A stretch of 64,000 nucleotides of DNA from Nitrospirota bacterium (GTDB lineage Bacteria; Nitrospirota; UBA9217): positions 2,254-66,253 of the forward strand of contig JAWOJY010000003.1 in NCBI GenBank assembly GCA_033854515.1, written 5' to 3'. How positions within the stretch are numbered: the stretch's first letter is position 1; each line of letters begins with the position of its first letter. The translations under genes and the position numbers were made by a program. This document shows positions 20,039 to 56,367 of this stretch, piece after piece. Below the pieces are notes generated by a model. It had not been told where the DNA came from. It saw nothing but the letters and a program-made list of their open reading frames with translations, and ran no database searches.

Positions 20039-20118
20039 TCGACGGCACTGTGGGACCTAAAGGGTAAATCTCCCTATGACGCCTCGGAAGTGATTCCTCA
20101 ACGTCTAGAAGAGTCCTC

Positions 20119-20295: not shown

Positions 20296-20418
20296 GCAGA
20301 ATCTCCTGCTTTTTGTCACTATTATAGCCGCCCTCTTCATGACTTGTCAAACTTGTCAATACGCAGATCATGAAGCGGGCCGTCAATCGCGCCTTTTTGA
20401 CGAATTTTGGAAAATACG

Positions 20419-20610
20419 TCATGCGAGTTCAAATGCCACTGCCACGGCAAGCGACGACAGCAAAATCAGACCCGCGAGAAACACAAGGTCCGCTATCTTT
20501 TCATAAAGCTCTCCCCGCCGTCTCGCGCGCATCGAGGCGTATGACAGTATGCTTGCACAAAGGAAAATGAGTATCGTCACACCGTCCAGTTTGTCGATGA
20601 ACTTTATCAT
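20419..20610 (-). CDS. Small 2-TM membrane protein (63 aa)
   Basis: Good RBS GGAGAGGGG upstream of MIKFIDKL; two hydrophobic helices; sits between the PEP-utilizing enzyme gene and tatA. Confidence 0.4.
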   Translation of the reverse strand: MIKFIDKLDGVTILIFLCASILSYASMRARRRGELYEKIADLVFLAGLILLSSLAVAVAFELA

Positions 20611-20827
20611 GTCCCCCCCTCTCCACAACCTCTTGAGAGTAAGGATCAAAAAGCACAGGCCGAGGAGGTTCGATGATGTCGGCAGTATATGTTTCGATAT
20701 GTTTTTTTTATCATTGTTTGCAGGCATCGTTGATCTTCTCCATCTCAGCGACATTCTTGGCGCGGGCCGCCGGCTTGATGGGACCCCTGCACCGCTGTTG
20801 ACGTTTCAGCGTGCAATGAACAGCTCT

Positions 20828-23443: not shown

Positions 23444-23450
23444 AGATACT

Positions 23451-23816
23451 TTAAGCGGCCAGGGCCCGCTTGATGGATTCCTTGAGCTCCTTTATTTTTA
23501 CGGGCTTCGGGAAGAAATCGTGCACGTCCCCCCGCAGCGCCTCAATGGCCGCGTCGAGGTTGGCGAAGGCCGTGATCATGATGACCTTCGTCTGGGGATA
23601 CAGCTTTTTCACGGTCCTCAGGACCTCCATCCCGTCGATTCCCTTCATTTTGTAATCGGTAATGACTACGTCGAACTTCTCCTGTTTAAGCCGCGCCAGG
23701 GCGGGTTCCGCGTTCAGGAACGTCTCCACGGCATACCCTTCCTGCTCGAGCGACATCTTCGCCATGTCTCCCACGATCTTTTCGTCGTCAATTACCATGA
23801 TTCTGTAGTTGTTCAT
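23451..23816 (-). CDS. Single-domain response regulator (CheY-like receiver)
   Basis: MVIDDE, phospho-acceptor Asp in DVVITDYKMKGIDG, VIMITA, FFPKP; 121 aa; overlaps the upstream kinase by 29 nt. Confidence 0.85.
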   Translation of the reverse strand: MNNYRIMVIDDEKIVGDMAKMSLEQEGYAVETFLNAEPALARLKQEKFDVVITDYKMKGIDGMEVLRTVKKLYPQTKVIMITAFANLDAAIEALRGDVHDFFPKPVKIKELKESIKRALAA

Positions 23817-25221
23817 CTGCTCTCTCCTCTTTCTTGTAAATAGGGAATTCTATGGTAAACGTCGTGCCGACGCCGACCTTGCTCTCGACCCTGATATCGC
23901 CTTTGTGGTTCTTGATGATGCCGTAGCTCACGGATAGGCCGAGGCCGGTCCCCCCATCGCCTTTCGTGCTGAAAAAGGGGTCGAAGATATGGGGCAGGTA
24001 TTCGGGCGGAATGCCCTTGCCTGTGTCCATGACGGTCAACTCAACGGAGCTGCCGTTTTGCCCCCGCCGTGAACCTATGTAGAGACTGCCGCGGGACGAC
24101 ATGGCCTGGACGGCGTTGGTGATCAGATTTACCAGTACTTGCTGTATCTGGTGCTCGTCGATGTACACGTGTGGCAGTTTTTGAGCCAGATTCAACTTCG
24201 TATCTATATTGGACACGTCGAGCATGTTCTGAACGAGGCCCATGGTCTTGTAAATCACGGCATTGATGTCGGCCTCTTTCAGGTTCGCGTCCTTGGGTCT
24301 CGAAAAATCAAGGAGGTTTTTCACGATCTTCCGTATCCGCTCCGTCTCGCCTTCCACCTTGTTCATGAACTCTACCCGCTGATCGGCGCTCAGGTTTTCA
24401 TACAGCTCAGCGTACGTCTGGGCGATCATCGATATGTTGTTCAGAGGGTTCGTCAGTTCATGTGCCACGCCGGCCGTCAGGATGCCGAGGGAGGCGAGTT
24501 TCTTCGACTGGATGAGTTCATCCTCGCGGTGGCTCAGTTCTTCGGACATGGAATTGAGCGCTTGAATCACCGCTCCCATTTCGTCCTGAGGGACGTCCCC
24601 CTCGATCTTGTGAAAATTTCCTTCGGAGATGGATTTCGTAAGCCGCTCTATTTTTCTGAGAGACCGTATTATCTTCTGCGATATGAAATGGCTCGCCGCG
24701 ATCACCAAAAGGAGCACGGCGACAAAAGAGACGAGCATGACGTTCTTCGACGTTGCAATGATATCGTTGACCCGCCTCCTCTCGAGCTGCGTGATGGCAT
24801 CGGAAAATTCCTTCAGTTTCTTGCCCGCAGTCCTGAGGTCGGCCGCCAATTCCGCATTCCCGGGATCGCCCCTTCTGATCTCTTCTACGATGTCAGAATA
24901 CTTCGTCAGGTATGTTTTCAGCTGATCCAGATCGGTCTTTCCGATTGCACGGACGATGTCGCCGCTCACGGCATCGATCGACTGCATAGTCTTGTCTATT
25001 TTTTCCCTTATATCAAGGAGAGCGGTCTTGTCATGATAAAGAAAATAGTTCTTTTCCGAGAGCCTCAGCTCGAGGAATGAGGCGTTCAAGTCGTCCGCGA
25101 TTTCCACGAACCTGAGCTTTGTAAGAACGAGGTTCATGTTCTGATAGGCGAAAAGCCCTATCAGAATGATCAACGCCAGATTAAAGACGTTGGAGAATAT
25201 GATCTTATTTTCTATTTTCAT
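23788..25221 (-). CDS. Sensor histidine kinase (TM, sensor, TM, HAMP, HisKA, HATPase_c)
   Basis: H-box [13 protein letters not shown]; N, G1 and G2 boxes ([22 protein letters not shown]); N-terminal sensor module with the EKNYFLY motif. Confidence 0.85.
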
Positions 25222-25456
25222 ACTTCAGATATTATACTCTATTCCTGCGTTTTTGTGCTACCGTTCTCCGCCAGGACGCCGTTCCGCAATACGCTTCCCC
25301 GGCGTATCTGTGTTTTGCCGTTTTTCCCGCCCGCAGAGAGCAAAGAGAAATTCCCGAGGAGGAAGGACCTGGAGGAGTTGGCTAGGAAATCCTGAGAGCC
25401 GGCGTCCGGGTTATGCCGTTCGGACCCTTGTGCCCGTCGGCGTGCCGGCCTGAGGG

Positions 25457-25939
25457 TCAAAAATGCATGGTATCCATAATTGATACATCAATGTCATATC
25501 CGAATTCATGCATTGCCCTCATCACGAATTGGCGGATATCTCTGATGTCCGCCGATTCCTCGAAAAATATCTTCCGGGTTCCCTTTTCGGTTTTGACAAG
25601 AAAATTGTATCTTCCCCGAAAAACGCCTATCAAAAGCCACAGGCCTATTCCGACCATGGCCCAAAGGACAATAGGCGCCAAGGGAATTCTGATGGTAAAG
25701 GATTTTATCTGAACCGGGAAGACTCCGCCTTCGGCCATGATGAAAGCGGCAATAATCAGAACCAGTCCGGTGACGATCAGACCAAAACCCGCGAGAAACT
25801 GCAGAAAGGGGTGTCGTGATTTCGGGTCATAGGACAACGCGATTTTCCGGATCTCACCCTTCGGGACGGTCACCGTGATCATGTTCCCTTCGATCTGGCT
25901 GATGCCTGATCCCGAAATCTGTACCGTCGAGCATCTCAT
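25457..25939 (-). CDS. Hypothetical membrane protein (2 TM)
   Basis: ORF with two strong hydrophobic helices; may start at the internal ATG 25882, which has AAGGG upstream. Confidence 0.4.
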   Translation of the reverse strand: MRCSTVQISGSGISQIEGNMITVTVPKGEIRKIALSYDPKSRHPFLQFLAGFGLIVTGLVLIIAAFIMAEGGVFPVQIKSFTIRIPLAPIVLWAMVGIGLWLLIGVFRGRYNFLVKTEKGTRKIFFEESADIRDIRQFVMRAMHEFGYDIDVSIMDTMHF

Positions 25940-26256
25940 TAATTGGTATGCTGCAACTCCGTAGATAAAGAACGGTTCTTATAGATCGACCCCGGTGATC
26001 GGAAGGGCCCGCGAGAGCCTGAAGTCGGGGTTTTTTAAAATCACCATCGACACCGTTGAGCAAAAGTCCTTCGCGCCGGGTAAGAGCCCGGCGAGATGCC
26101 GTTCATTTCCGCGAAACGCATCCCGAAAATATGAGCAGGAATCGGGGAGCTGTCGGTAAAATCACCTGTCCGACTCACACCCGGAGATGACGGACTTTGG
26201 AGAAAACCCGCCCCCGGCTTAGCCAGGAGCGGGTTTGGAGAGTTCTTTCAATGATG

Positions 26257-27774
26257 TTAGATGCCTTCGAATTCCTTTGCTGCTTCGGCGGCCGCGGCGT
26301 CCACTTTCTTATGCTCCTTTTTGGCGGTAGAAAGGAACGCGGCGATTACATTCAACAGCATGAGCACACCGATCACCACGATGAAGCCCCGCATGAATGC
26401 ATGGTCTTTTACATCAATCGGGATACCGTTGTTGCGGAAGATGTGCTGTACGTTGGCATAGCCGCTGTCGGCCAGGTATTTATGCTCCAGCTTGGTGAAG
26501 ATCAACCCTGATATATCGACGCCGAAAATGAGGCCGAGGGACCTCATCATATTCAATACGCCGCCGGCGAGCCCCAGTTTTTCCTTGGGAGCGGCGCCCA
26601 TGATCGCGCTGTTGTTCGGCGGCGTGAACAGGCCCATGCCCACGCCCAGAAGGATCAATTCACCGACAAGGAGCGACAGATGCGTATGTACACCCAGGAA
26701 CAAGAGGGCAAAACAGGCGATCGCGGACACCAGCATGCCGCTCGTTGTCATGATCCTTGATCCGTATTTATCGGAAATATGCCCGGCAAAGGGCGCGACG
26801 AGCGCCATGGCAAGCGGAATCGGAGTAAGCAGGCTGCCGGTGAGCGCGGGGCTGTAATTGAGCACCTTTTCGAGATAGAAAGGCATCAGGAACAGGACCG
26901 CGAACAGGACGTAATAGGACATCATGCCCGTCAGGTTGCCGATCAGGAACGTGCTGTTCTTGAAAAGCTTGAGATCGATCAGCGGATGCTCGACTCTCAG
27001 TTCCGTGAGGACGAACAGGCTGAGCAGAATACAGGCGTGTATGAAATAGACCATGATGGTGTACGAACCCCATCCCAGGTTCACGACCTCGTTGAACGTC
27101 AGCACGAGGAAGGCAAGGCCCGAAGCGAAGAATATGGTGCCCAGGTAATCAATCGTTTCTTTTTTATCGGTCTTCTGGTTGGGCGGAAGAATATACAGAG
27201 CGGCAAGCGTGCCGAGTATGCCGATGGGGATATTGACGTAGAATACGGCCCGCCAGCCGATTGTGGCTATCAAGACGCCTCCTACAAAAGGCCCCACTGC
27301 CATGGCAATCGCCTGAACGGCGCCCTGAATGCCGATTGCCTTGCCCCGTTCATTCCCCGGGAAGGCCTGCGTGATCAGGGCGACTGAGTTCGCCTGCAGA
27401 AGGCCCGCTCCGACTGCCTGAAGCACACGGGCTGCAATGAGCATGAACGCGGATGTCGACATACCGCAAAACAGCGACCCTACGGTAAATACGACGAAAC
27501 CCGCATTGTACAGCTTCGACCTGCCGAACATGTCGGCGAGTCTTCCGAAGAAGGGAAGAAAAATGGTCAGCGTGAGCATATACGCCATAGCCACCCATTC
27601 GATGACGGACATCGACGTGTTGAACTCGGTCTTCAAAGTCGGCATGGCCACGTTCACGATGCTCACGTCCAAGGCCGACATGGTCGCGCCGATAAGAACG
27701 TTGATCAGGATAAACCACTTCCAGGTTGGCCTGGCGGAAAAGAACGGATGGGGAAACTGTAAGAACTTTTTCAT
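26257..27774 (-). CDS. MFS transporter, DHA2 (EmrB/QacA, 14-TMS) family
   Basis: 14 predicted TM helices and MFS motifs (GRLADMFGRSKL, the D-R/K-x-G-R motif A). Start set at the ATG with the AGAGGAGA RBS. Confidence 0.8.
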   Translation of the reverse strand: MKKFLQFPHPFFSARPTWKWFILINVLIGATMSALDVSIVNVAMPTLKTEFNTSMSVIEWVAMAYMLTLTIFLPFFGRLADMFGRSKLYNAGFVVFTVGSLFCGMSTSAFMLIAARVLQAVGAGLLQANSVALITQAFPGNERGKAIGIQGAVQAIAMAVGPFVGGVLIATIGWRAVFYVNIPIGILGTLAALYILPPNQKTDKKETIDYLGTIFFASGLAFLVLTFNEVVNLGWGSYTIMVYFIHACILLSLFVLTELRVEHPLIDLKLFKNSTFLIGNLTGMMSYYVLFAVLFLMPFYLEKVLNYSPALTGSLLTPIPLAMALVAPFAGHISDKYGSRIMTTSGMLVSAIACFALLFLGVHTHLSLLVGELILLGVGMGLFTPPNNSAIMGAAPKEKLGLAGGVLNMMRSLGLIFGVDISGLIFTKLEHKYLADSGYANVQHIFRNNGIPIDVKDHAFMRGFIVVIGVLMLLNVIAAFLSTAKKEHKKVDAAAAEAAKEFEGI

Positions 27775-27833
27775 GATATTGGCATCTCCTCTCATAGACA
27801 TAATATAAACCCGTCAAAGAAACAACTCAAGTG

Positions 27834-28181
27834 TCATATTTCGCCGCCATGCGAGATGCCTGGCGCACGGGCGAAACTTCGGTAGACGCTTTTGGGCTTG
27901 GGAATCCTGTTCATCCGCGGGACCGTAACGATCCCCGGCTTGAACCGGGATAAGACGTCGGGAGCCGGGCAATGGCCCGAATCCACGGCCGGGCCGGAAT
28001 ACTCCCCCAGGGCGACCGCGCCGCCGGGGTGGAACGAGCCGATGGCAACAGGGCGTTTCTTCGCCGCAGGCATGGCAGACGCCGGTTCGGAGCCGACGAG
28101 CTGGAGCAGGCTGAAGAGCAACATGAACAGCAGCGTGCCGAAGAAACGCGCATTACTGACCAGCAGTCTGGCATGTCTCAT
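27834..28181 (-). CDS. Possible small secreted Pro/Gly-rich protein
   Basis: Hydrophobic N-terminal segment ending AxA (SEPASA); weak translation signals; lies in a GC-rich region with a long antisense ORF, so it may not be real. Confidence 0.3.
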   Translation of the reverse strand: MRHARLLVSNARFFGTLLFMLLFSLLQLVGSEPASAMPAAKKRPVAIGSFHPGGAVALGEYSGPAVDSGHCPAPDVLSRFKPGIVTVPRMNRIPKPKSVYRSFARAPGISHGGEI

Positions 28182-28235
28182 ATAATGGATGAGGAAGTGG
28201 ATATGAATATGCATAAGTGTTTCCGCCTGTGCCGG

Positions 28236-29477
28236 TCACTCCGGATAGGCTATTCCCCTCGGGACCTCAGCCTGTTCCTTTCTTACCGGCCAGTACCAGA
28301 GGGCTCCGTCTATAAGCAGCAGAATGCCCGCAGCAATAAGCCAGAGGTTGAACGACGTAAGGAGACCAAAACCGAAATAGCTGATAATACCGATACCGAT
28401 GCTGAGGAACGACATGCCTGTGCGGATGAAAGCCAGCCCGGTCCGGGCACGGGCATAGATGGTGCGGTAACAGCCTGCGATCGTCCGCTGGGCCGCCAGG
28501 ACGTTCCGCTCGCGGGCGAACATGGTGCGCGTCTTGCTCGAAGGCGTGGGATTAAGATAGGTGCTGTGGTCTGCGAGGAAGTCGCCCATCCGCGCAAGCA
28601 TCGTCCCCTGGGACTCCCGCTTGATTCCCGTGTTCTCGATAAAATGATAATTTTCCAGGAACTGGATCGTGGCCGCGGACACCTCGACGAGGGTTTGATG
28701 CCCGGGCGGCGTCATCCTCGATTTCCGCACATTCAGGTATACCGGCAGGCCGTAAAAGGAAATCACGATCCCGATGATGAGCACGGAAAAATAGAGGACG
28801 GGATCGTACGCGATGTTCTTTGATTTGAGCAGGGCGTTGGAGAGCGCGATAGTGCCGAGGCCCCACCGCAGAAAGGCGAGGCCGGTCCTCGCTTTCGCCA
28901 TGTCCGTCCGGTAACAGGCCATCCGCGTCCGCCAGTGCGCCATCGTATTGCGCCAGAAGGCGAGGCCCGTGCGCTCGGTGCCGATCAAAAGGCCTACCCG
29001 TGCATGGAGAAAGTCCTGGATAAACCACTGGATGTCCGAATCGAGCGAGACCCGGAATTCGTATTGGTCCGCCCTGACATGTTTCTTCACGTCTTCCCGC
29101 ATCGCGGCGCTTTCCGGATTTCTCGCGGCGATGACGACTGTGCCCGATTTGTCCTTCATGACCGGCATCCACTGGTACGTTGAGAGCGAGTCAGGGCTGA
29201 GACCGGCAAGAAGCTCGGGCGGGATCGGCAAGCGTTCGTCGTATTCAATGGAGAGACAGTTGTAATATTTCGCAAGCGCCACGAGCAGGTCCTGCTTGGC
29301 TACTTTGTACTCGTCCAGCAGGACTTTTTCGAGATTGACGCCCCGCGCCTGTGCTCTGCTTGCCGCTTCTTCGAGATCAGCCTGGCTCAGCAGCCCCCGT
29401 TCGACCAGAAGGGAGAATTCCGAGCCGGCCCCAACCGCATTTTCGGCGAGATCGCCGTTCATCAGTTCATTTTTCAT
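28236..29477 (-). CDS. Membrane protein: N-terminal GspE/MshE-N-like (T2SSE_N) domain fused to two DUF202-like heptad-repeat/TM modules
   Basis: The N-terminus LLVERGLLSQADLEEAASRAQARGVNLEKVLLDEYKVAKQDLLVALAKYY resembles T2SSE_N/MshEN. Two blocks of R-T-x-x-A-x-x heptads (ERTGLAFWRNTMAHWRTRMACYRTDMAKARTGLAFLRWG and RERNVLAAQRTIAGCYRTIYARARTGLAFIRTG) are each followed by a TM helix. Confidence 0.6.
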   Translation of the reverse strand: MKNELMNGDLAENAVGAGSEFSLLVERGLLSQADLEEAASRAQARGVNLEKVLLDEYKVAKQDLLVALAKYYNCLSIEYDERLPIPPELLAGLSPDSLSTYQWMPVMKDKSGTVVIAARNPESAAMREDVKKHVRADQYEFRVSLDSDIQWFIQDFLHARVGLLIGTERTGLAFWRNTMAHWRTRMACYRTDMAKARTGLAFLRWGLGTIALSNALLKSKNIAYDPVLYFSVLIIGIVISFYGLPVYLNVRKSRMTPPGHQTLVEVSAATIQFLENYHFIENTGIKRESQGTMLARMGDFLADHSTYLNPTPSSKTRTMFARERNVLAAQRTIAGCYRTIYARARTGLAFIRTGMSFLSIGIGIISYFGFGLLTSFNLWLIAAGILLLIDGALWYWPVRKEQAEVPRGIAYPE

Positions 29478-31146
29478 GGTGGTTAAAAGATACCGTCCCC
29501 CATTCAGAGTTTGGTCTTCCGTAATCGGGAATCGTTATCTCCATATCCCCGTAACAGTACGGGTACTCCTTTCTCATGCGTTCGGTGGGAAGCATCCAGC
29601 GGTATCCGTCGACGATCAGTGCAAGCCCGCCGACGATCAGCAAGGCATTGAAGATCGTCCAGCCGGGTGAGGCAACGCCGAAATAGGCCATCAGTCCCGC
29701 CCCGACGGACGTAATGTTCATGCCCGTCCTGACGTACGCCATGCCCGTCCGCGACACTGCCATAACCGTCCGGAGCCTCGCCATGACGCCGCGACGGTCG
29801 GCAAGTACTGTCCGTTCCAAAGCGTGGCCTGTCGTGGCCCAGATGCCGGGCTTCTGGTTCACTGTAACCGGCGGACCGTCCTTGCCCGGTCCCGATCGTT
29901 TGTGTCCGAGCGGAAATACCAGGTCCCAGATCGTTTCCTTGTTCAGTGCCGCGAACACGGACCGTAACCCTTCGATTCCGGACTTGCGACCGCCGAAATA
30001 CCAGTAAAAGCCCTCGGCGGACATGAGAATGCCTGCAGCAATAAGCGCGACGTCGAAGACCGACCACGCTGACCACCTGCTCGTCTCAAACTGCCGCATC
30101 AACCCTATCCCGAGTCCGGTAAAGGTAATGCCGGTGCGCGTAAAGGCGAGTCCCGTCCGCGCTCGGGCGAGCTTCGTCCGGTGGCCGGCAAGCGAGGTCC
30201 GCTCCTCAGCCATGTCGGTCCGGTCGCTCGCGAGGTACCTTCGCCGCATTACCGGCGAGAGATTCTCCCAGTCGGCCCTGAGTTCGGCGGCGCCGTCCGT
30301 GACGGATCCCCGGCTGATAACAGGAGGGCGACCGTCGGATATCGCTGCTTCCAGCACGCAGGTGCCCCACGTCGGCTCCGTGCAGGTGGCATCAATTGGC
30401 TTCGCAGCGATCTTTCGTGAGGGCAGATACCATTTGATCCCGTCATAGACCATAATGATGCCGGCGACGAGGAGCGGCGCTTCGAGGACGAGATAAAAGC
30501 CGGAGCCCAGGACGCGCAGGAACAGGAGAGCGATGACGATGAAGGAGACGCCCGTCCGGACGAAAGCGAGGCCCGTTCTCCCCTTCGCGAAGAGCGTCCG
30601 GTAATGCGCAAAGGTCGATCGCCGGTACGCGAAGAAGGTCCTCACGCGCGCAAGGGGCGTCCGGCCGCCGAAGATGCGGAAATTGCAGTTCACGTCGAAA
30701 TTGTGTTCAATGATGCGGATGAGGTCCGCGGGAAAGGCGATTCGGAAATCGATCTGCTCCACTCCCAGAATTCTCTTAACGTCTTCGATCACGCGCTCAT
30801 CATCGGGACGGAAGGCGATGACCTCGGCCCTCTGCTCGCGCACGGAGAGCGGAAACCACAAAGCCTTCTTCTGGTGCTCGAGGTCGAGCCGCAGGACCAG
30901 AAAGTAGGACGCGGCCACGTTCTCATCGAATTCAACAAAAGGGCGGCCGTAATGTTCTGAAAGGCTGAACAAAATTTCGTGCTTCGGAACGCCTTTTTCA
31001 AGTAACCATTCCTCGGGATATTTACCCACGGTCGCTGACTTTTTTACAGCATCCTCTAATTCCACGTCGGTAAGAATCCCTCTTCTCACCAGCCGTTCAA
31101 ACTTTTTTTTGAACATGACATCAGACATTTTTTCAAAAACCTGCAC
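29467..31146 (-). CDS. Membrane protein: N-terminal GspE/MshE-N-like (T2SSE_N) domain fused to three DUF202-like heptad-repeat/TM modules (paralog of 28236..29477)
   Basis: FERLVRRGILTDVELEDAVKK...EHYGRPFVEF is the T2SSE_N-like part. Three RTxxAxx heptad blocks (RTPLARVRTFFAYRRSTFAHYRTLFAKGRTGLAFVRTG, RTDMAEERTSLAGHRTKLARARTGLAFTRTG and RRGVMARLRTVMAVSRTGMAYVRTG) are each followed by a TM helix. The gene overlaps its downstream paralog by 11 nt. The start is uncertain: GTG at 31146, or ATG at 31128 or 31116. Confidence 0.6.
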   Translation of the reverse strand: MQVFEKMSDVMFKKKFERLVRRGILTDVELEDAVKKSATVGKYPEEWLLEKGVPKHEILFSLSEHYGRPFVEFDENVAASYFLVLRLDLEHQKKALWFPLSVREQRAEVIAFRPDDERVIEDVKRILGVEQIDFRIAFPADLIRIIEHNFDVNCNFRIFGGRTPLARVRTFFAYRRSTFAHYRTLFAKGRTGLAFVRTGVSFIVIALLFLRVLGSGFYLVLEAPLLVAGIIMVYDGIKWYLPSRKIAAKPIDATCTEPTWGTCVLEAAISDGRPPVISRGSVTDGAAELRADWENLSPVMRRRYLASDRTDMAEERTSLAGHRTKLARARTGLAFTRTGITFTGLGIGLMRQFETSRWSAWSVFDVALIAAGILMSAEGFYWYFGGRKSGIEGLRSVFAALNKETIWDLVFPLGHKRSGPGKDGPPVTVNQKPGIWATTGHALERTVLADRRGVMARLRTVMAVSRTGMAYVRTGMNITSVGAGLMAYFGVASPGWTIFNALLIVGGLALIVDGYRWMLPTERMRKEYPYCYGDMEITIPDYGRPNSEWGTVSFNHHEK

Positions 31147-31546
31147 AGCGCTCCGAAAAGCAGACCACCAATCGACCTTTCACTGCGGTCTTATTCGTCA
31201 TTAATTTTTCAGGATTTTCCCTGGTCACGGGAGATCGGCTGCGATTTCAGTAAGGCCGCTGTAGGATGCAGGCGGCGCGCCTCCCGGCCTTTCCGTAAAT
31301 GCTTGGTTGACGGCAGGTGGTCAGGATTCGTCTCTTGCCTCAATACGAACGGAATCTATCGATTCGTTTTCAGAGCCTTCCTAATTCCTGAATGCTTTTA
31401 CCGAGCTTATCCCGCGGCCCGGGAGTCTTTTCAAACGGCCCTTGACAGGCACGTCCGCCTGCCATTATGACCGGTGCCTGGGTCCTTCACGACAGTATCG
31501 ATTTAGATACGCGTCTTTTCTCTGCTCCTTCTTTCATCGTTTACTT

Positions 31547-31969
31547 CTAAATTCCGACAACAAATACCGGACAGGGCGCCCGGTTGATGACTTTTTCGAC
31601 GACATGATCTCCGAAGAGACGGCTGAAAATGCTCTTCTTTTTCTTCGCACCCATGATAATCAGGTCACATTGTTCCTCTGCCGCCACTTCCACGATCTTT
31701 TCGGTTACGTCGCCCTGTTCCAGTCTCATCTTAACCAGTGCGCCTTCGGCTTCCGATGCATTTTGAATTTCCTCAACGGCCTTCCGTGCGCCGTTGTCGA
31801 GGACGTCGCCGATATTCTTGATCCCGGTCAGATTCAAGTCGCCCTCGTACGGCTGGATGACCTTCACGACCGTGATCCACGTTTTCTCGTCTCGGGCGAG
31901 TTGTATGCCTTTGTGCAAAACCTCCCGTGACCCGTTCATTGCGATGAGAACCTTTCTGTACCCTCTCAT
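31547..31969 (-). CDS. Universal stress protein (single UspA domain)
   Basis: KVLIAMNGS...DLIIMGAKKKKSIFSRLFGDHVVEKVINRAPCPVFVV carries the ATP-binding G-x2-G-x9-G-S-type motif of UspA-class Usp. Confidence 0.85.
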   Translation of the reverse strand: MRGYRKVLIAMNGSREVLHKGIQLARDEKTWITVVKVIQPYEGDLNLTGIKNIGDVLDNGARKAVEEIQNASEAEGALVKMRLEQGDVTEKIVEVAAEEQCDLIIMGAKKKKSIFSRLFGDHVVEKVINRAPCPVFVVGI

Positions 31970-31972
31970 GGC

Positions 31973-32830
31973 TCACCTCACCACCAGGATGGGGCAGGAA
32001 GCATTGGTGATTACGCTTCCCGTCGTGCTCCCCATGATGGCCTTGCTCACTCCCTTCCATCCGTGCGTACCCATGACGATAAGATCGTTTTCGAGCCTCT
32101 CGGCGGCCTTCACGATCTCGTCCCCTTCATGCCCTTCCCGGATTTCGGTTCGAACGGAAACACCATGCTCCGAGGCGATTGCTTTTGCCTCGCCGACGAC
32201 TTTCTCGGCTTCCCGATAAAGGCTCTTTTTGATGGAATCGGACCTGAAGAACTCCACCATCTCCTCATAGCGGGGGATTACGTAAAGGACCGTGACCGCC
32301 GCACCGTCCATCTTCGACAGCTCGCAGGCGCGGAGCAACGCTTTTTTGCTGAGTTCCGACTTGTCGAAGGGCAGCAACACGGACGTGTAATTGCCGGTAC
32401 ATTCGCTGCACGGCCGTTTCACCACCAGCACGTCACAGGGAGCATTGAGCACCACCTGCGACGTCACGCTTCCCATCAAGAGCCTCTTCAGGCCTTTTCT
32501 TCCGTAGGTGCCGAGGGCGATTAGGTCTGCGTTCTTCCCCTGGGCCGTTTCGACGATCACGTCGGGCGGCTCTCCTTCGCAGACCATGGACTCGGACTCA
32601 ACGCCTGTTTCCGATGAAATCTCCTGTTTTGCCTGCAGGCAGATCTTCGTACCTATCTCGAACCGTTTCTCCATCTGCGAGGGCAGGATGGCAAATTCCT
32701 CTTTATCGAAATACACGGCATGGACCATAAAAACCTTGCCCCCGTGTTTCTTTACCCAAAGTGACGATTCTTTCAGCGCAGCCTTGCTCGACTCCGATTC
32801 ATCATACCCCACGACGATTGAATTGTACAT
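31973..32830 (-). CDS. Universal stress protein with tandem Usp domains
   Basis: Two Usp repeats (IVVGYDESESS...LIALGTYGRKGLKRLLMGSVTSQVV and VLLPFDKSE...LIVMGTHGWKGVSKAIMGSTTGSVI). Confidence 0.85.
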   Translation of the reverse strand: MYNSIVVGYDESESSKAALKESSLWVKKHGGKVFMVHAVYFDKEEFAILPSQMEKRFEIGTKICLQAKQEISSETGVESESMVCEGEPPDVIVETAQGKNADLIALGTYGRKGLKRLLMGSVTSQVVLNAPCDVLVVKRPCSECTGNYTSVLLPFDKSELSKKALLRACELSKMDGAAVTVLYVIPRYEEMVEFFRSDSIKKSLYREAEKVVGEAKAIASEHGVSVRTEIREGHEGDEIVKAAERLENDLIVMGTHGWKGVSKAIMGSTTGSVITNASCPILVVR

Positions 32831-33642
32831 TAATGCGCTCCCCCGCCTTTTCTGAATATCAGTCCAACGCCGAAACCGGCCGACAGCGCGGCAAGTACGG
32901 ACAGCGCACCGTAGAGAACACCGTTGTTCCTGGCCATGCCGGCAAGGGATTTGACCATCCCGACCTGCTCAACATTCACTTTGGTTTCCGCCTGTTCCAC
33001 CACTTTCTTGTTCTTCACCGCATAAACCGTAACGAGATAATCGCCGGGTGTCGCCTGATACGGCCAGTCGGTCATGATGTAATATTCCTGCCTGCCGTTG
33101 TCGAGAGGCGTAGTGGATATCTTGTTCGAGGACATCGCATAGAGGCTCGACGCTTCTTTGAATTTCAGGAATTCATTGAACCATGCGGTCTTCTCTTCGT
33201 CGCCGGTGACCGGAGTAACTTCCACGTGATTTTTGAGCGACGAATAACCGATTGTGTATTTATCCATTTCTTCAGGGCTCAGGATATCTTCGAGCTTTCC
33301 CGTGCTGTAGACGCTGTAAAAGTTGGGCGCATGTTCGAACTTCAAATCGCCCACGTTCATCCACAGCAGCCCTCCCACCTTTCCTTTTTTCTTGAGCACC
33401 TGATGGCCTTCGGGCGAGGTTATCTTGATCACCAGATCCGTACCGGCGTCGGCCACGCCCTTTACGCTCACGGTGCTGCCGTGGTAAAAGAAGTCGATCT
33501 GGATGTGGTCATGATTCGCCTTGGCCGTCAACTCAGCAGCGGCGGTTCTATCAAATGTAAAATGTAAAACGAAAAATGCAAAAGCAAGGAATACCGTTAT
33601 TTCGAATTTTGGACTTTGAATTTTGAATTTCTTCATTATCAA
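32830..33642 (-). CDS. Secreted periplasmic protein with a C-terminal TM anchor, co-transcribed with the TSUP permease
   Basis: Signal peptide (VFLAFAFFVLHFTFDRTAAA), a soluble domain of about 220 aa and a C-terminal helix VLYGALSVLAALSAGFGVGLIF. Overlaps the upstream gene by 4 nt and abuts the downstream one. Confidence 0.5.
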   Translation of the reverse strand: MIMKKFKIQSPKFEITVFLAFAFFVLHFTFDRTAAAELTAKANHDHIQIDFFYHGSTVSVKGVADAGTDLVIKITSPEGHQVLKKKGKVGGLLWMNVGDLKFEHAPNFYSVYSTGKLEDILSPEEMDKYTIGYSSLKNHVEVTPVTGDEEKTAWFNEFLKFKEASSLYAMSSNKISTTPLDNGRQEYYIMTDWPYQATPGDYLVTVYAVKNKKVVEQAETKVNVEQVGMVKSLAGMARNNGVLYGALSVLAALSAGFGVGLIFRKGGGAH

Positions 33643-34610
33643 TGCCCTCCTGCCTGAGAGATGAGTAATGACGGACTTAAGGTGAGTTCAAAAATTATCT
33701 TGATCGTGACCACGAGAACGATGAGCGCAAGAAGTATCTTGAGCTGTTCGCCCTTCAGCTTCCTGCCGAAGACAGCGCCAACCTGCGCCCCGATTGTGGA
33801 GCCCAGGAGCAGGAGCACGGCAAGGATGAAATCCACGCTGTGGTTCGTATAGGCCTGGAGGAACGTGACCTCGATGCAGGTGAACAGTATCTGGAACAGG
33901 CTCGTGCCTACCACGACGTGCATCGGCATACGCAGGATATAGACCATCACCGGCACCATGAGGAACCCGCCGCCCACACCCATGATCGCAGCAAGGATGC
34001 CGACAAAGCCGCCGAGGATAACAGGCACGAGAGCAGAATGCGTGACGCCGGATTTTTCGAAATGGGTCTGGAGCGGCAAGGACTTCAGGAATTTGGCCAT
34101 ACCCGATTCTTTCTGCTGTTTGGACTCGGCAACGGACGGCTTTTTCTTCATGCTCATGATGCTCTCGACGAGCATATAGGAGCCGACGATGCCGAGCATG
34201 AGCACATAGGTCATTTTGATGACAAAGTCGGCGTTCCCCATGGCCTTGAGCACCTTGATGCCCTGGACGCCGACAAGGCCGCCGAGGAACCCGCCGAGAA
34301 GAAGGTAGAGCCCCATTTTGAAGTCAACGTTGCCCACCTTCCAGTGCGCATACGTGCCGGACGTCGATGCCGCAACGATCTGATTGGAGTCGGTGGCCGC
34401 GGCCACGGTCGACGGAATGCCGAACATGATCAGGAGCGGCGTCATCAGAAACCCTCCGCCTACGCCGAAAAGACCGGAAAGCAGCCCTACGGCGAGCCCG
34501 AGCCCCACGGGAATCAGGATGTTGATACTCGTTAACGCAACAGGCAAGTAAAGATACATTGCACCCACTCCTTTATCCGATATGATTATCTGTACAGGGT
34601 CCATGGCCAT
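33639..34610 (-). CDS. TauE/SafE (TSUP) family anion/sulfite-type permease
   Basis: Two internal repeats carrying the GxGGG signature (GLFGVGGGFLMTPLL and IMGVGGGFLMVPVMV); about 8 TM helices. Confidence 0.8.
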   Translation of the reverse strand: MAMDPVQIIISDKGVGAMYLYLPVALTSINILIPVGLGLAVGLLSGLFGVGGGFLMTPLLIMFGIPSTVAAATDSNQIVAASTSGTYAHWKVGNVDFKMGLYLLLGGFLGGLVGVQGIKVLKAMGNADFVIKMTYVLMLGIVGSYMLVESIMSMKKKPSVAESKQQKESGMAKFLKSLPLQTHFEKSGVTHSALVPVILGGFVGILAAIMGVGGGFLMVPVMVYILRMPMHVVVGTSLFQILFTCIEVTFLQAYTNHSVDFILAVLLLLGSTIGAQVGAVFGRKLKGEQLKILLALIVLVVTIKIIFELTLSPSLLISQAGGH

Positions 34611-34668
34611 GGAAAAACCCTATGCCGTACATTCATGCATGCATGGACAAAAAATCTTTGACCGTGTA

Positions 34669-35166
34669 TCAGGCCACGCAGCAGGCCTGTTTTGTCATGG
34701 TAACGATAGGCCGCGACGACGTCCTGACCAAGCGGTTGAGATCCTTGGACGATATATTGCCCTTCTCGGTCACAGCGGGGCTCAACAGAACCTTGTCGAT
34801 TCCCGAATTCTGCTTGAGAAAGGTCCTGATGCCCGAGACCGCGTCAAGTCCCGTGTTATGGACATGAACGTGAATGCCTTCCTTATGACACTTTTCTACC
34901 AGCTCGGCGAGTTTCTGATCGAGGCGCTTGCGTGCGTCGGGAGAATCCCCGGCCGCAACCTGTCGAGCCGTATCATGGTCATCTTCCTCTGCGAAACTCA
35001 CGGCGGTCATCAGATTTTCGATCTTGTCCATCAGGGTGTTTTTCTTGTGAACGAGCAGAAGCGCGATATCTTCATACATCGCCTTTGCAAGTTCAATGGC
35101 ATATGAAAGCCCATCTTCGAGATTCTCATCGCGGTATGTGACAAATAAAAGCTGTCTCTTTCCCAT
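34669..35166 (-). CDS. Divergent Usp-like protein carrying an inserted SFAEE-motif segment
   Basis: Strong RBS AAGGAGG. Usp-like beta-alpha pattern (LLFVTYRDENLEDGLSYAIELAKAMYEDIALLLV ... KVLLSPA). The insertion LMDKIENLMTAVSFAEEDDHDTARQ matches a motif in two genes of the second Usp operon. It is the first gene after the sigma-54 promoter. Confidence 0.5.
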   Translation of the reverse strand: MGKRQLLFVTYRDENLEDGLSYAIELAKAMYEDIALLLVHKKNTLMDKIENLMTAVSFAEEDDHDTARQVAAGDSPDARKRLDQKLAELVEKCHKEGIHVHVHNTGLDAVSGIRTFLKQNSGIDKVLLSPAVTEKGNISSKDLNRLVRTSSRPIVTMTKQACCVA

Positions 35167-35224
35167 TGGAATTGACCTCCTTGCATGTTCAAACTCCAGT
35201 ATGTTCGAACTTTGCCTTTACATA

Positions 35225-35241
35225 TTGCAATGAGAATGCCA
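35225..35241 (-). promoter_or_regulatory. Sigma-54 (RpoN) -24/-12 promoter: TGGCAT-TCTCA-TTGCAA
   Basis: On the minus strand the sequence reads TGGCATTCTCATTGCAA, with the conserved GG and GC spaced exactly as in the TGGCAC-N5-TTGCW consensus. It lies about 50 nt upstream of the 35166 start, in an AT-rich intergenic region next to a sigma-54 activator gene. Confidence 0.55.
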
Positions 35242-35638
35242 TTTTTTAAGTTATTGTTTTTAAAACATTTGATAACTTAATGCCAAATTATATTGTTTCA
35301 AATTTTAACTATTATGAACATCAGACAAATAATTTAGTATCAATTTCGAATTTCACGCGAAGCAGAAAGTCAGTTTCTACCCTTTATTTAGAGGGCAAAA
35401 CATCATTTTTTAGAGACAGCTAAGTAATAGCGAAATATACTATTTGGCATTTTCTTTCATGTTTCAAAACTGGACATGATTTGTATTTTTGAAATTTATT
35501 GAATAATCTGTTACTATAAGGTGCAATATACATAAAAAATATCTGTTTTTTGAAAAATTTTGCACCTCTTTACAGCAAAAAGTTAAGCGTGCATTCGCGT
35601 CTTTCGCGATTAAAATTGGTTTTAGACAAGGGGAAAAT

Positions 35639-36250
35639 ATGACTGAACCGAATAATCCCGGTGAAGAAAAAGCCTGGGAGATTCTGTCGACGCTGGATCC
35701 GGACAAGCTGTGCAAGGCCGCGTCCGCCTTCTATGACCGAGCGACGGAAAAATACGCTGTGACGTCGCTCGGAATGAGATTCGACGTTTCACCCAAGGAA
35801 AGGACGATTTCGAGCGCCTCACCCGGAAGCGAGGTGATCCTTCATAAACTCGGTTATTTCTTCAAGCTCTCAATCCTGTGGTATCTGGTAAGCGCAAAAG
35901 ACATTCGTTGCACGGAACGTCTCGTGAAGCTTCAGAACATCAAAGGCGGGGATATATTTACTAGGGGGTCGCACCTCCTGCCCCTTGACAGGCTGGAGCT
36001 GAAATACGGGACGAACAAGAGCGGGTTTATCGAGAAGGGGAAAACGCTTGCCGGAGAAATCATGAATTACGGCGACGCTTCGCTGAAGCTCTTCCCTTTT
36101 CCAAGGGTCCCGGTCGTTCTCACGCTCTGGATCGAGGATGAGGAGTTCCCGGCCCGCGTTGATCTGCTGTTCGATTCAACCTGCGATCTGCTGTTGCCGG
36201 TCGATATAATCTGGTCCACAGCCATGCTGACCGTGCTCGCCATGCTGTGA
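35639..36250 (+). CDS. DUF3786-like hypothetical protein
   Basis: 203 aa; RBS AAGGGGAAAA upstream; preceded by a 470-bp AT-rich region; the family assignment is from memory only. Confidence 0.45.
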   Translation: MTEPNNPGEEKAWEILSTLDPDKLCKAASAFYDRATEKYAVTSLGMRFDVSPKERTISSASPGSEVILHKLGYFFKLSILWYLVSAKDIRCTERLVKLQNIKGGDIFTRGSHLLPLDRLELKYGTNKSGFIEKGKTLAGEIMNYGDASLKLFPFPRVPVVLTLWIEDEEFPARVDLLFDSTCDLLLPVDIIWSTAMLTVLAML

Positions 36251-56364: not shown

Positions 56365-56367
56365 CTT

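Follow-up and report, generated by a model that had tools for sequence, protein, structure and literature searches.

Genes A and B, which overlap on the minus strand of the window (the whole 64,000-nucleotide stretch of Nitrospirota DNA analysed here), most likely encode co-translated, paralogous inner-membrane proteins that would assemble into one heteromeric complex. Each protein joins an N-terminal domain of the MshEN/GSPII fold, whose c-di-GMP site, judging from its sequence, has been lost, to tandem DUF202 hairpin modules carrying long, strictly conserved arginine ladders. By analogy with the yeast VTC polyphosphate channel, we tentatively propose, as a possible rather than an established reading, that A and B form a 3+2 heteromeric, arginine-lined conduit or track for anions or polyanions under two-component control.

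The overlapping paralogues A and B

The maximal reading frame of A (Table 1) is probably longer than the gene: translation is likely to begin at the ATG at nucleotide 31116, which is M11 of that frame, gives a protein of 549 aa and is the start used in public annotation and in the family alignment. The public proteins P0001 (549 aa) and P0121 are 100% identical to A and B, respectively. The overlap reported in the first-pass annotation is exactly 11 nt, with the TGA stop of A sitting within the ATG AAA AAT GAA of B, and in related loci under maximal-ORF calling the commonest A/B spacings are all overlaps. The two genes had also been taken for tandem paralogues, and their comparison confirms this (32% identity over 394 aa, E = 7e-47); among 80 genome loci, B directly follows A in nearly every one. 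Both proteins score above the Pfam cutoffs for MshEN (PF05157; cutoff 23.1 bits; A 34.6 bits, B 43.2 bits) and for DUF202 (PF02656; cutoff 23.4 bits; A 56.9 bits in three stretches, B 30.3 bits in two stretches), and the HMM scan proposed earlier thus upheld both the likeness of the N-domain to type II secretion and type IV pilus ATPases and the tandem DUF202 modules. By phmmer, the N-domain of B matches the GSPII domains of PilF. AlphaFold2 (AF2) models reached a pLDDT of 79.7 and a pTM of 0.72 for A and a pLDDT of 71.1 for B.

Table 1. Features of the A/B locus and its neighbours, in positions of the window
Feature	Position	Strand	Details
Gene A: MshEN-like domain and three DUF202 arginine-ladder hairpin modules	29467-31146	minus	maximal GTG ORF, 559 aa
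Gene B: MshEN-like domain and two DUF202 arginine-ladder hairpin modules	28236-29477	minus	413 aa
A/B overlap ATGAAAAATGA, stop of A with start of B	29467-29477	minus	11 nt, read from sequence
A N-domain, MshEN/GSPII fold, degenerate c-di-GMP motif	30676-31116	minus	ORF residues 11-157
A module 1: ladder R162-R197 (6 Arg) continuous with TM1, then TM2	30412-30675	minus	isolated-module Pfam DUF202 29.1 bits
A module 2: ladder R302-R337 (6 Arg) and TM hairpin	29983-30255	minus	Pfam DUF202 33.3 bits
A module 3: ladder R445-R473 (5 Arg) and TM hairpin	29569-29826	minus	Pfam DUF202 31.9 bits
B N-domain, MshEN/GSPII fold, degenerate c-di-GMP motif	28998-29423	minus	residues 19-160
B module 1: ladder R169-R204 (6 Arg) and TM hairpin	28722-28997	minus	isolated-module Pfam DUF202 23.2 bits vs cutoff 23.4
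B module 2: ladder R317-R352 (6 Arg) and TM hairpin	28278-28541	minus	Pfam DUF202 26.0 bits
TauE/SafE-family anion permease, upstream neighbour	33639-34610	minus	Pfam
Alph_Pro_TM membrane protein, upstream neighbour	32830-33642	minus	Pfam
MFS transporter, between B and kinase	26257-27801	minus	Pfam MFS_1
Membrane ORF, between B and kinase	25457-25939	minus	160 aa
Membrane HAMP-HisKA-HATPase histidine kinase	23788-25221	minus	477 aa; Pfam
Single-domain response regulator, REC only	23451-23816	minus	121 aa; Pfam Response_reg 98.8 bits
PEP-synthase-like dikinase	20828-23443	minus	871 aa; Pfam PPDK_N and PEP-utilizers

The N-terminal domains and c-di-GMP

The N-domain had been put forward as a binder of c-di-GMP or another nucleotide second messenger, and it might accordingly be a receptor whose ligand, c-di-GMP or a related cyclic dinucleotide, gates or activates the DUF202 membrane module. 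It is a true MshEN fold that retains the hydrophobic core of the two helix hairpins (L24, L35, L53, L64 and L68 in B); 28 of 56 B homologues give a sub-threshold match to the NCBIfam c-di-GMP_motif model (for B itself 26.3 bits against a cutoff of 38, over model positions 5-52 only); and c-di-GMP-binding MshEN domains on non-ATPase outputs are reported, for example that of the glycosyltransferase NfrB (PMC8669469). The ligand-binding consensus, however, was found neither in its strict form nor in the relaxed form of Wang et al. 2016 (PMC5013675) in A or B, in any of 56 B and 59 A homologues (0/115 aligned) or in any of 151 A/B proteins from the 80 genome loci. Both motifs of A and B have no Arg at position 1 and no Gly at position 3, the glycine singled out by the authors of a study of the motif (PMC12002112). 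The “RLG” triads have become conserved x-E-F and [D/E]-L-E in the B alignment and K-K-F and x-x-E in the A alignment, with position 3 occupied either by Phe (53-54 members of each family) or by Glu (55/56 and 59/59). PilF GSPII-A (PMC12002112) and XpsE-N (PMC5013675) deviate less from the motif and yet bind no c-di-GMP, and in Desulfobulbales A proteins the N-domain is shorter by ~35-45 residues. A search of positions 20000-36000 of the window found no c-di-GMP riboswitch, and the ~45 window ORFs scanned include none with a GGDEF or EAL domain. The proposal of a c-di-GMP receptor fails because the N-domains lack the MshEN consensus, the outcome that the first-pass annotation had itself named as decisive against it, and we give it hardly any credence.

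A and B differ from the c-di-GMP receptors V. cholerae MshE (5htl) and T. thermophilus PilF GSPII-B/C in that both 24-residue motifs are degenerate at ligand-contacting positions, in that they carry no T2SSE ATPase domain, and in that the N-domain is joined to a polytopic membrane module. PilF GSPII-A (9g1w), XpsE-N (2d28) and X. citri PilB-N with PilZ (7lkm) resemble A and B in having the fold without a competent c-di-GMP motif, and in the PDB the sequence of B is matched best by PilF entries, the alignment covering their GSPII-A segment. In this group, whose members sit on secretion or pilus ATPases, unlike the N-domains of A and B, the same fold is able to act as a protein-protein interface. 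The N-domains of A and B are probably cytoplasmic and would have a protein-docking or regulatory role.

Arginine ladders and the parallel with VTC

The ladders are exact R-T-x-[L/M]-A-x-x heptads with an Arg spacing of 7 (6, 6 and 5 in A; 6 and 6 in B), and they are conserved across Nitrospirota and Desulfobulbales. In 365 arrays drawn from 151 members of the family, the five heptads nearest the membrane invariably have Arg at position a (100%). Position e holds Ala in 90-100%, Thr predominates at b and Leu or Met occupies d, whereas c, f and g are variable; therefore one helical face is under selection. The heptad arrays noted in the first pass are thus real and strongly selected, not low-complexity noise. 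Each array does precede a membrane segment, as had been described, but this segment is a two-helix TM hairpin and not a single helix. In the AF2 models each ladder and its TM1 form one continuous helix of 48-55 residues, after which comes a return helix: 154-203 and 209-237 in A module 1 (549-aa numbering), which has a basic R-K pair at the cytoplasmic end of TM2, 288-342 and 350-391 in A module 2, 430-479 and 484-517 in A module 3, 171-218 and 226-252 in B module 1, and 314-368 and 376-404 in B module 2. The ladders of A and B together contain 29 arginines; each ladder has a net charge of +5 to +9, and the five ladder segments amount to ~+33, with no intrahelical neutralisation because the i±3/4 neighbours of Arg are Leu and Ala. 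The 3+2 module pattern occurs in 48 of the 80 loci; most of the others appear to reflect contig ends or ORF-calling problems, and some loci encode three paralogues with 3+3+2 modules.

The yeast VTC complex (Vtc1/Vtc3/Vtc4; 8i6v, 7ytj) belongs to the same Pfam family. Vtc1, whose sequence was verified as 8i6v_A, scores 63.9 bits against DUF202 with residue 24 on profile position 1, and all five A/B modules begin at this profile position on a ladder Arg; therefore Vtc1 K24, R31 and N38 fall on the last three ladder positions, K24 and R31 coinciding with two ladder arginines, and this register is the same in two independent alignments. In VTC, five TM1 helices make the channel, which is lined by K24/R31, K622/R629 and K698/R705 at a spacing of 7, and mutating these residues abolishes vacuolar polyP (PMC9911596). 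Vtc1 K24 and R31 line the upper channel, with R31 in the constriction. VTC and A/B also have in common an R-T-x-L-[A/S]-[W/F] motif where TM1 starts, basic residues at every seventh position of TM1, a total of five DUF202 units, and the placement of these units alongside an ATP-using cytoplasmic enzyme and a regulatory domain. The two systems nevertheless differ in many respects. The A/B modules have two TM helices and Vtc1 has three; the basic stripe comprises 2 positions in Vtc1 and Vtc4 and 4 basic residues in Vtc3, compared with 5-6 Arg in A/B, where it reaches far into the cytoplasm, unlike in VTC; and the A/B modules are concatenated in two chains, whereas VTC consists of five separate subunits. 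The regulatory domain is MshEN-like in A/B and SPX in VTC, the partner enzyme is a phospho-His dikinase in the former and a TTM polymerase in the latter, and the location is the bacterial inner membrane as opposed to the vacuole, a tie to polyphosphate being known for VTC alone. The link to Vtc1 rests on joint Pfam membership and register, and direct similarity falls short of significance: a PDB search with the 5-module profile retrieved no VTC chain, the 359-module HMM gave Vtc1 4.4 bits, equalled by 81/2000 shuffles, and hhalign against Vtc1 returned probabilities of 1% (5-module profile) and 0.4% (profile-profile).

Bacterial relatives also share the DUF202 hairpin and the R-T heptad motif with A/B, namely single-module proteins of the E. 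coli YidH type and the proteins P0301, P0365 and P0311. YidH-type proteins have only two R-T heptads and three TM helices. The long-ladder relatives (P0301, P0365 and P0311) have one hairpin and no MshEN, and the stalks of single-hairpin relatives vary widely in length, a visual count giving far longer arrays, of up to ~25 or more heptads. E. coli YidH was a screen candidate only, D-alanine accumulation being unchanged in a follow-up transport assay (PMC10299036), and for bacterial DUF202 proteins in general no measurement of a ligand, an oligomeric state or transport is reported.

Conserved partners and possible function

Of the 43 loci with >6 kb of downstream sequence, to which the partner counts are restricted, 33 have a histidine kinase gene that lies downstream of B and in the same orientation, 31 a single-domain response regulator and 30 the dikinase. 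The dikinase consists of an ATP-grasp and a phospho-His swivel domain without the PEP/pyruvate TIM barrel; its T-S-H motif is kept (TSH at residue 528), and no domain is assigned to the N-terminal ~130 aa or the C-terminal ~290 aa. It aligns with the NCBIfam PEP synthase model at positions 5-472 of 798 only and with PDB 2ols at residues 6-468 only, and the relatives matched are PEP synthase, rifamycin phosphotransferase and the prodigiosin ligases PigC/RedH. The kinase directly follows B in most other loci, and the MFS gene and the 160-aa ORF (25457-27801) are a lineage-specific insert; a similar order, B, MFS, small ORF (cluster c11), is found in the loci L006, L009, L010, L013 and L070. The TauE/SafE and Alph_Pro_TM neighbours recur in about 30 loci, and BON and Usp genes are present in related neighbourhoods.

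Similar surroundings are seen for ladder proteins that have no MshEN domain. The gene for P0311, in which ladder and hairpin are fused to REC, ends 2 nt before a PPDK_N/PEP-utilizers gene (864 aa) and has HK and RR genes as neighbours, and P0301 is accompanied by an 874-aa dikinase, REC, HAMP-HK, TauE and Alph_Pro_TM; both have the dikinase/REC/HK neighbourhood of A/B. No dikinase, REC or HK was found near P0351 on its 31-kb contig. In the metagenomic P0303, the N-terminal half of A is joined directly to the dikinase C-terminal domain, and this protein, encoded on one contig of 4.7 kb, could have arisen by deletion or be an artefact of chimeric assembly.

A feasible model of the conduit may be as follows. 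In every hairpin the pore-type helix, TM1, continues unbroken for ~30 residues on the cytoplasmic side, and the five ladder helices would stand in a parallel bundle, their Arg/Thr faces bordering an extended cationic lumen or groove. This lumen would run on into a TM1-lined pore, as with the five DUF202 TM1 helices of yeast VTC. The complex would bind or conduct anionic species, probably polymeric or multiply charged, while the conserved phospho-histidine dikinase would work together with it and the adjacent HAMP kinase would control it via the single-domain response regulator. Several observations speak against this model: the 3+3+2 loci misfit a simple count of five, the P0351 neighbourhood has no such partners, the ~45 window ORFs scanned include no gene for a TTM polymerase, SPX, ppk or ppx, and the differences from Vtc1 in TM helix number and direct similarity remain.

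Alternatively, the ladders could be structural or signalling coiled-coil stalks, with A/B serving as a scaffold or co-sensor of the adjacent two-component system without any transport or binding, and buried polar Arg layers setting the register and partner specificity. Strict heptads with Leu/Met at d and Ala at e are typical of coiled coils, g is often acidic in distal heptads and could pair with the Arg of a neighbouring helix, the association with HK and RR is tight and extends to the REC fusion in one relative, and variable stalk length is a feature of spacer or ruler proteins. We consider this explanation unlikely, though worth retaining. Invariant Arg in five heptads across phyla, together with near-invariant Thr and Ala, far exceeds the usual need for register setting, the net charge of +33 meets few compensating acidic residues, the last one or two Arg lie inside TM1 at the pore-lining profile positions of VTC, and a scaffold role leaves the conserved dikinase unexplained.

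The ladder could also be a substrate or docking platform for the dikinase, the R-T sites being phosphorylated or bound so that charge is neutralised and assembly or gating of the membrane module is switched. The 29 invariant Arg-Thr dipeptides, the conserved adjacency to an enzyme with an intact catalytic motif and no assigned substrate-binding region, and the fusion in P0303 are consistent with this idea. It is improbable, however: we know of no PEP-synthase-type dikinase that phosphorylates protein threonines, the matched relatives act on small molecules, some heptads have Asn, Ser or Trp at position b, and P0303 carries the doubt mentioned above. It is distinctly improbable that the ladders are amphipathic, lipid-binding helices resting along the cytoplasmic face of the membrane, where they would recognise anionic lipids or curvature. 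Membrane anchoring of the modules, the presence of Arg, Leu/Met and Ala on a common helical face, and the BON and Usp genes would suit such a role; yet the ladders have a low hydrophobic moment (0.09-0.31) and only about one strongly hydrophobic residue in each heptad, which speaks against amphipathic helices lying on the surface, and the AF2 helices run straight into TM1 with no kink at the membrane boundary and a pLDDT mostly of 83-93 in the ladder heptads.

The view of the pair as an uncharacterised membrane effector holds. The A/B proteins constitute an uncharacterised family from sulfur-cycling anaerobes, whose members may conduct negatively charged molecules through a channel or bind them along a track.

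Paralogous genes with DUF202 hairpin modules

The minus-strand genes A and B overlap by 11 nt (ATGAAAAATGA), as read directly from the sequence, and the TGA stop of A falls within the first codons of B. Judging by the family alignment and by a public protein of identical sequence, A probably starts at Met11 of the maximal ORF (nt 31116), which gives a protein of 549 aa. The two proteins are paralogues (32% identity over 394 residues, E = 7e-47), and A is essentially B with a third C-terminal module. In an HMM scan, both Pfam families scored above the cutoff in both proteins, namely MshEN (PF05157; 43.2 bits in B and 34.6 bits in A, cutoff 23.1) and DUF202 (PF02656; 56.9 bits over three stretches of A and 30.3 bits over two stretches of B, cutoff 23.4); the isolated modules scored 29.1, 33.3, 31.9, 23.2, and 26.0 bits against DUF202. 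No T2SSE AAA+ ATPase domain was found in A or B by the Pfam scan, only ladder/TM modules follow the N-domain, and the NCBIfam PilB model was matched over positions 5-137 of 564 only. Since the ORFs, the overlap, the paralogy, and the Pfam domains were all confirmed, the first-pass annotation was accurate in describing tandem, overlapping paralogues that join an MshEN-like domain to repeated DUF202 modules.

In all five modules, an R-T-x-L-A-[W/F]-x-R-T motif runs into a first TM helix (TM1), which is followed by a second (TM2); the family-wide consensus at the entry of TM1 is ...ARTGLAFxRTG.... This motif is the end of a longer heptad array, R-T-x-[L/M]-A-x-x, referred to here as the ladder. 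The arginines are spaced by exactly seven residues in A (R162-R197, six; R302-R337, six; R445-R473, five) and in B (R169-R204 and R317-R352, six each), amounting to 29 ladder arginines per A+B pair. Among 80 related loci that were fetched, with ORFs called crudely, nearly all A-type proteins have ladders of 6, 6, and 5 arginines and nearly all B-type proteins have ladders of 6 and 6. The 3+2 module pattern is present at 48 of these loci, and the exceptions appear to be mostly contig ends or artefacts of the crude ORF calling. Four loci (L029, L031, L032, and L034) carry three consecutive paralogues of about 547, 568, and 401-425 aa, that is, 3+3+2 modules, which precede the same histidine kinase, response regulator, and dikinase genes as do A and B; L027 is arranged likewise, with one copy split. 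The three-paralogue loci suggest alternative A subunits for one B.

A tally of 365 arrays from 151 proteins, anchored on the last arginine, showed that heptad position a is Arg in 100% of cases in the five membrane-proximal heptads, position b is Thr (59-98%; otherwise Asn or Ser), position d is Leu/Met, and position e is Ala (90-100%), with positions c, f, and g variable. On a helical wheel, positions d, a, e, and b are contiguous and give a Leu/Arg/Ala/Thr face; thus, one face of the ladder helix is under strong selection. Because the i±3/4 neighbours of each Arg are Leu and Ala, the ladder has no intrahelical charge compensation, and the net charges of the five ladder segments in the window are +9, +6, +5, +5, and +8.

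AlphaFold2 models (A, pLDDT 79.7 and pTM 0.72; B, pLDDT 71.1) predict that each ladder continues into its TM1 as a single unbroken helix of 48-55 residues, from which a short loop leads to a return helix. The last ladder arginine lies within the hydrophobic stretch of TM1, and the penultimate one probably does so too. The heptad arrays of the first-pass annotation are real, but what comes after each array is a two-helix hairpin, not the single TM helix placed there by that annotation. YidH is a three-TM unit; in A and B no three-TM DUF202 unit was found, each module having two helices before the next cytoplasmic linker.

The MshEN-like N-terminal domain

The N-domain has the two-subdomain MshEN/GSPII fold, with an N-terminal four-helix bundle and a C-terminal alpha/beta subdomain, and its Foldseek target-normalised TM scores are 0.65-0.75 to MshE and the GSPII domains of PilF and mostly 0.63-0.70 to XpsE-N and PilB-N. 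The stretch before the first ladder arginine of A comprises 107-118 residues in Desulfobulbales versus 151 in Nitrospirota. A further protein, P0283 (1003 aa), has six stretches matched to an MshEN-containing profile; by eye, several tandem MshEN-like domains follow its unassigned N-terminal region, with no ATPase or DUF202 module.

The c-di-GMP receptor motif consists of two tandem 24-residue segments, RLGxx(L/V/I)(L/V/I)xxG(L/V/I)(L/V/I)xxxxLxxxLxxQ, placed 5 residues apart, for which a relaxed pattern has also been described (PMC5013675). In MshEN, the Arg at position 1 stacks on guanine, which is also bound through the backbone NH groups of Gly3 and its successor, and the Gln contacts the ribose-phosphate (PMC5013675); the importance of the glycine at position 3 is stressed in another study as well (PMC12002112). 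Neither the strict nor the relaxed motif occurs in any of the 56 B and 59 A homologues aligned (0/115) or of the 151 A/B proteins from the 80 loci. At position 3, B has Phe in the first motif (54/56) and Glu in the second (55/56), as does A (53/59 and 59/59, respectively). At position 1, B has Ser/Ala/Pro in the first motif and Asp/Glu in the second, and A has Lys/Gln/Asn and Tyr/Pro/Ala, respectively. The replacements of the RLG triad are themselves conserved, as x-E-F and [D/E]-L-E in B and as K-K-F and x-x-E in A. The NCBIfam c-di-GMP_motif model (NF053729) stayed below its cutoff (26.3 versus 38 bits), covering model positions 5-52 only and skipping the RLG positions; its best E-value among the 56 B homologues was 1.1e-6, and A gave no match to it.

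The c-di-GMP receptor proposed in the first-pass annotation was rejected on these motif tests together with literature precedent (PMC5013675; PMC12002112), and canonical c-di-GMP binding by the N-domains of A and B is, from their sequences, very unlikely. By analogy, the N-domain is more probably a docking or regulatory module, like the non-binding XpsE-N and PilB-N (for example PilB-N/PilZ, 7lkm). A/B is also a clear example of a Pfam MshEN match that must not be read as a c-di-GMP receptor in annotation, and the name 'type II secretion protein' that some public records give to B is a wrong label.

Distribution, ladder relatives, and gene neighbourhood

Word-indexed searches gave 868 matches for A and 1196 for B. 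The best 120 of each were full-length and 59-100% identical; their annotations go no further than 'DUF202/YidH', 'hypothetical' or, erroneously, 'type II secretion protein.' When 1.84 billion 50%-identity representatives were searched exhaustively with a profile, only 54 proteins were retrieved at E ≤ 1e-30. Most of the loci are from Nitrospirota (Thermodesulfovibrionales, Candidatus Sulfobium), Desulfobulbales (Candidatus Electronema cable bacteria, Desulfurivibrionaceae, Hydrosulfovibrio), Dissulfuribacterales, and Dissulfurispiraceae. The locus of Hydrosulfovibrio ferrireducens CB1MN (L049) was a tblastn match at which the crude ORF calling missed A and B.

The conserved gene order is A, B, a HAMP histidine kinase, a single-domain response regulator, and a PPDK_N plus PEP-utilizers protein of ~862 aa (the dikinase). 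Where more than 6 kb of sequence follows B (43 loci), the kinase is found on the same strand at 33, the regulator at 31, and the dikinase at 30. In the window, B and the kinase are separated by an MFS transporter gene and a small membrane ORF, and several relatives are organised similarly, with an MFS gene and a small ORF after B. Upstream, many Nitrospirota loci contain two Usp genes, an Alph_Pro_TM protein, and a TauE/SafE permease. The dikinase of the window scores 264.6 bits to PPDK_N and 68 bits to PEP-utilizers and has an intact T-S-H motif. It matches the PEP synthase model over positions 5-472 of 798 only, and 2ols over residues 6-468 only; this part consists of the ATP-grasp and phospho-His swivel domains, and the protein lacks the PEP/pyruvate-binding TIM barrel. 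The N-terminal ~130 and C-terminal ~290 residues have no match in Pfam, NCBIfam or PDB. Several Desulfobulbales-type loci (e.g., L044 from Desulfurivibrionaceae, L045, L050, and L052) contain up to three further dikinase copies, which accompany another histidine kinase/response regulator pair upstream of A.

Features of the window (nucleotide positions)
Feature	Position	Strand	Remarks
PEP-synthase-like dikinase	20828-23443	-	871 aa
Single-domain response regulator	23451-23816		
HAMP histidine kinase	23788-25221		
Gene B	28236-29477	-	ORF
Gene A	29467-31146	-	Maximal ORF of 559 aa
Usp x2, Alph_Pro_TM, TauE	31547-34610	-	
165-aa ORF	34669-35166	-	No Pfam or NCBIfam match
Second Usp/TauE set	41214-43146	-	Tandem-Usp protein and TauE
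Lon-type protease	44347-46593	+	AAA, Lon_lid, Lon_C; receiver domain at residues 190-300
Periplasmic protein with a weak PBP_like_2 (phosphate-binding-protein-type) match, and GAF histidine kinase	54007-57363	-	Periplasmic protein immediately upstream of the kinase

Homologues of the 165-aa ORF occur at 26 related loci by BLAST (21 in clustering), just upstream of TauE/Alph_Pro_TM. Histidine kinases (seven with kinase domains and, in addition, a dCache/HAMP sensor ORF) and Usp proteins (at least four) are unusually numerous in the window as a whole. The Lon-type protein looks like a phosphorylation-controlled protease architecture, and the PBP_like_2 protein and GAF histidine kinase may form a solute-sensing pair. 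The former of this pair, about 25 kb away from A and B, is the only phosphate-related item in the window: no ppk, ppx, pst, SPX or TTM polymerase was found among the ~45 window ORFs scanned, nor in A or B themselves. Within positions 20000-36000, every Rfam family stayed below its gathering score; promoter-like and terminator-like sites occurred at chance frequency.

The representative search also retrieved a wider class of small MshEN-less membrane proteins (P0301, P0307, P0325, P0344, P0350, P0351, P0365, and P0367; loci L082-L084 and L087-L089), in which one DUF202 hairpin follows a much longer R-T-x-L-A-x-x stalk of, by eye, a handful to ~25 or more heptads. The neighbourhood of P0301 includes an 874-aa dikinase, a receiver (REC) protein, a HAMP kinase, TauE, and Alph_Pro_TM. 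P0311 (L081:6001-7092) is composed of a ladder, a DUF202 hairpin, and a C-terminal REC domain detected by Pfam; a gap of 2 nt separates it from the 864-aa PPDK_N/PEP-utilizers gene downstream, with histidine kinase, response regulator, Kup, and Usp genes beside it. In P0305 (L086), a truncated receiver domain is apparent by eye, and Pfam reports DUF202 only. P0351, on a 31-kb contig, is without dikinase, REC, and histidine kinase partner genes, and the contigs of the other MshEN-less relatives are too short to judge context. A Cytidylate_kin2 gene adjoins P0301 and P0365, the one beside P0301 also having a BON domain. In three architectures, those of A/B, P0301, and P0311, a ladder/DUF202 protein is thus accompanied by a REC domain and a dikinase of this type; this recurrence in gene context is the strongest evidence from which we infer that they act together. 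The REC fusion and the gene context also suggest a direct action of the response regulator on the membrane protein.

In P0303 (L085:3015-4103; 362 aa), the N-terminal half of A, with MshEN and the first ladder, is joined directly to the last ~165 residues of the dikinase C-terminal domain, which may reflect a genuine fusion, loss of the whole cassette by in-frame deletion, or a chimera created in assembly. Because it lies on one 4.7-kb contig, these are indistinguishable, and P0303 was set aside as a Rosetta-stone fusion of A and the dikinase, deletion or chimera fitting equally well.

Comparison with VTC and candidate functions

The DUF202 family is a widespread membrane family, the only understood members of which are the subunits of the eukaryotic VTC polyphosphate channel; literature searches on DUF202 and YidH yielded no bacterial member with an established function. 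In VTC, five subunits with three TM helices each contribute TM1 to the channel, the upper wall of which contains K24/R31 (Vtc1), K694/K698/R705/R709 (Vtc3), and K622/R629 (Vtc4); R31, R709, and R629 form the constriction, and mutations of channel residues abolish vacuolar polyphosphate (PMC9911596). Pfam aligns residues 24-85 of Vtc1, the sequence of which was verified against PDB 8i6v_A, to DUF202 profile positions 1-67. Profile position 1 is K24 in Vtc1 and a ladder arginine in all five window modules, and R31 aligns with the Arg of ARTGLAF; from this shared position, K24, R31, and N38 of Vtc1 therefore correspond to the last three ladder positions. The same register was obtained in two separate alignments (FANERTFLSW versus lAk(a/g)RTgLAf). 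Thus, as far as alignment to a common profile indicates, the A/B modules and the VTC subunits share membership of Pfam DUF202 and its register, and the ladder is, in that register, an extension of the basic stripe that is functional in VTC.

Four sequence/profile attempts at direct homology were all non-significant. A 5-module profile found no VTC chain among PDB sequences; an HMM of 359 modules scored 4.4 bits against Vtc1, which was equalled by 81 of 2000 shuffles; and hhalign gave probabilities of 1% (5-module profile versus Vtc1) and 0.4% (profile versus profile, with 33 Vtc1 homologues). Fold searches with the membrane part returned generic helical bundles only. Because the direct comparisons were non-significant, membership of the VTC-channel family is not claimed. 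A+B resembles VTC in having five modules (3+2; 48/80 loci), the VTC subunit number, but differs in having two rather than three TM helices per unit and in its enzyme partner, a PEP-synthase-like dikinase instead of the TTM polymerase and SPX associated with VTC.

The best-supported reading, to which we give tentative preference, is that A and B assemble into one heteromer. In this complex, the five ladder helices would bundle with their Arg/Thr face inward, forming a cationic lumen or groove that runs on into a TM1-lined pore; the complex would bind or conduct an anion or polyanion and would work with the dikinase under the control of the kinase and response regulator. Several observations stand against such a conduit, namely the non-significant comparison with VTC, the two TM helices per module, the existence of 3+3+2 loci, and the lack of nearby polyphosphate genes among the window ORFs scanned. 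The heptad pattern would fit ladders that serve purely as a structural or signalling coiled-coil stalk, which we regard as rather unlikely; the invariance and charge of the ladders do not fit it. Highly improbable is a ladder acting as a phospho-acceptor or docking site for the dikinase, as we know of no precedent for protein-Thr phosphorylation by PEP-synthase-type dikinases. Ladders lying on the membrane surface as lipid-binding helices are less probable still, because the hydrophobic moments of the window ladders are low (0.09-0.31), which disfavours an in-plane amphipathic helix. Least probable of all is the c-di-GMP-gated effector of the first-pass annotation, given the absence of the motif; what stands is its more general idea of a novel membrane effector, for which the heteromeric conduit now provides a concrete, testable structural hypothesis.

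It is also tempting to speculate, as an improbable elaboration, that A/B is a bacterial counterpart of the VTC channel built as a pseudo-pentamer (3+2). Here, a long arginine-lined tube would accept a linear polyanion that is made or primed by the barrel-less dikinase, the most plausible candidates being polyphosphate and other phosphorylated or sulfur-oxyanion polymers; the polymer would be passed across or held at the inner membrane, and the tube would be gated by the response regulator via the degenerate MshEN domains.

The component domains of A and B are already known. No paper with both MshEN and DUF202 was found in a literature search, and the fusion of the two appears to be undescribed, as do the ladder of five to six invariant arginine rungs with its fixed 3+2 modular arrangement and the conserved association with a two-component system and with a PEP-synthase-like dikinase devoid of the barrel. 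The A/B family exaggerates the one feature of VTC known to matter, extending the basic stripe of TM1 into an invariant arginine ladder, and the 3+2 concatenation and the conserved two-component/dikinase block offer testable handles on the role of bacterial DUF202 proteins. The carriers, which include Thermodesulfovibrionia, Sulfobium, Desulfobulbales with the Electronema cable bacteria, and sulfur disproportionators, are environmentally important. If the pseudo-pentameric reading were true, A/B and the dikinase would represent a new prokaryotic coupled synthase-translocase system, so far found mainly in sulfur-cycling anaerobes, including cable bacteria.
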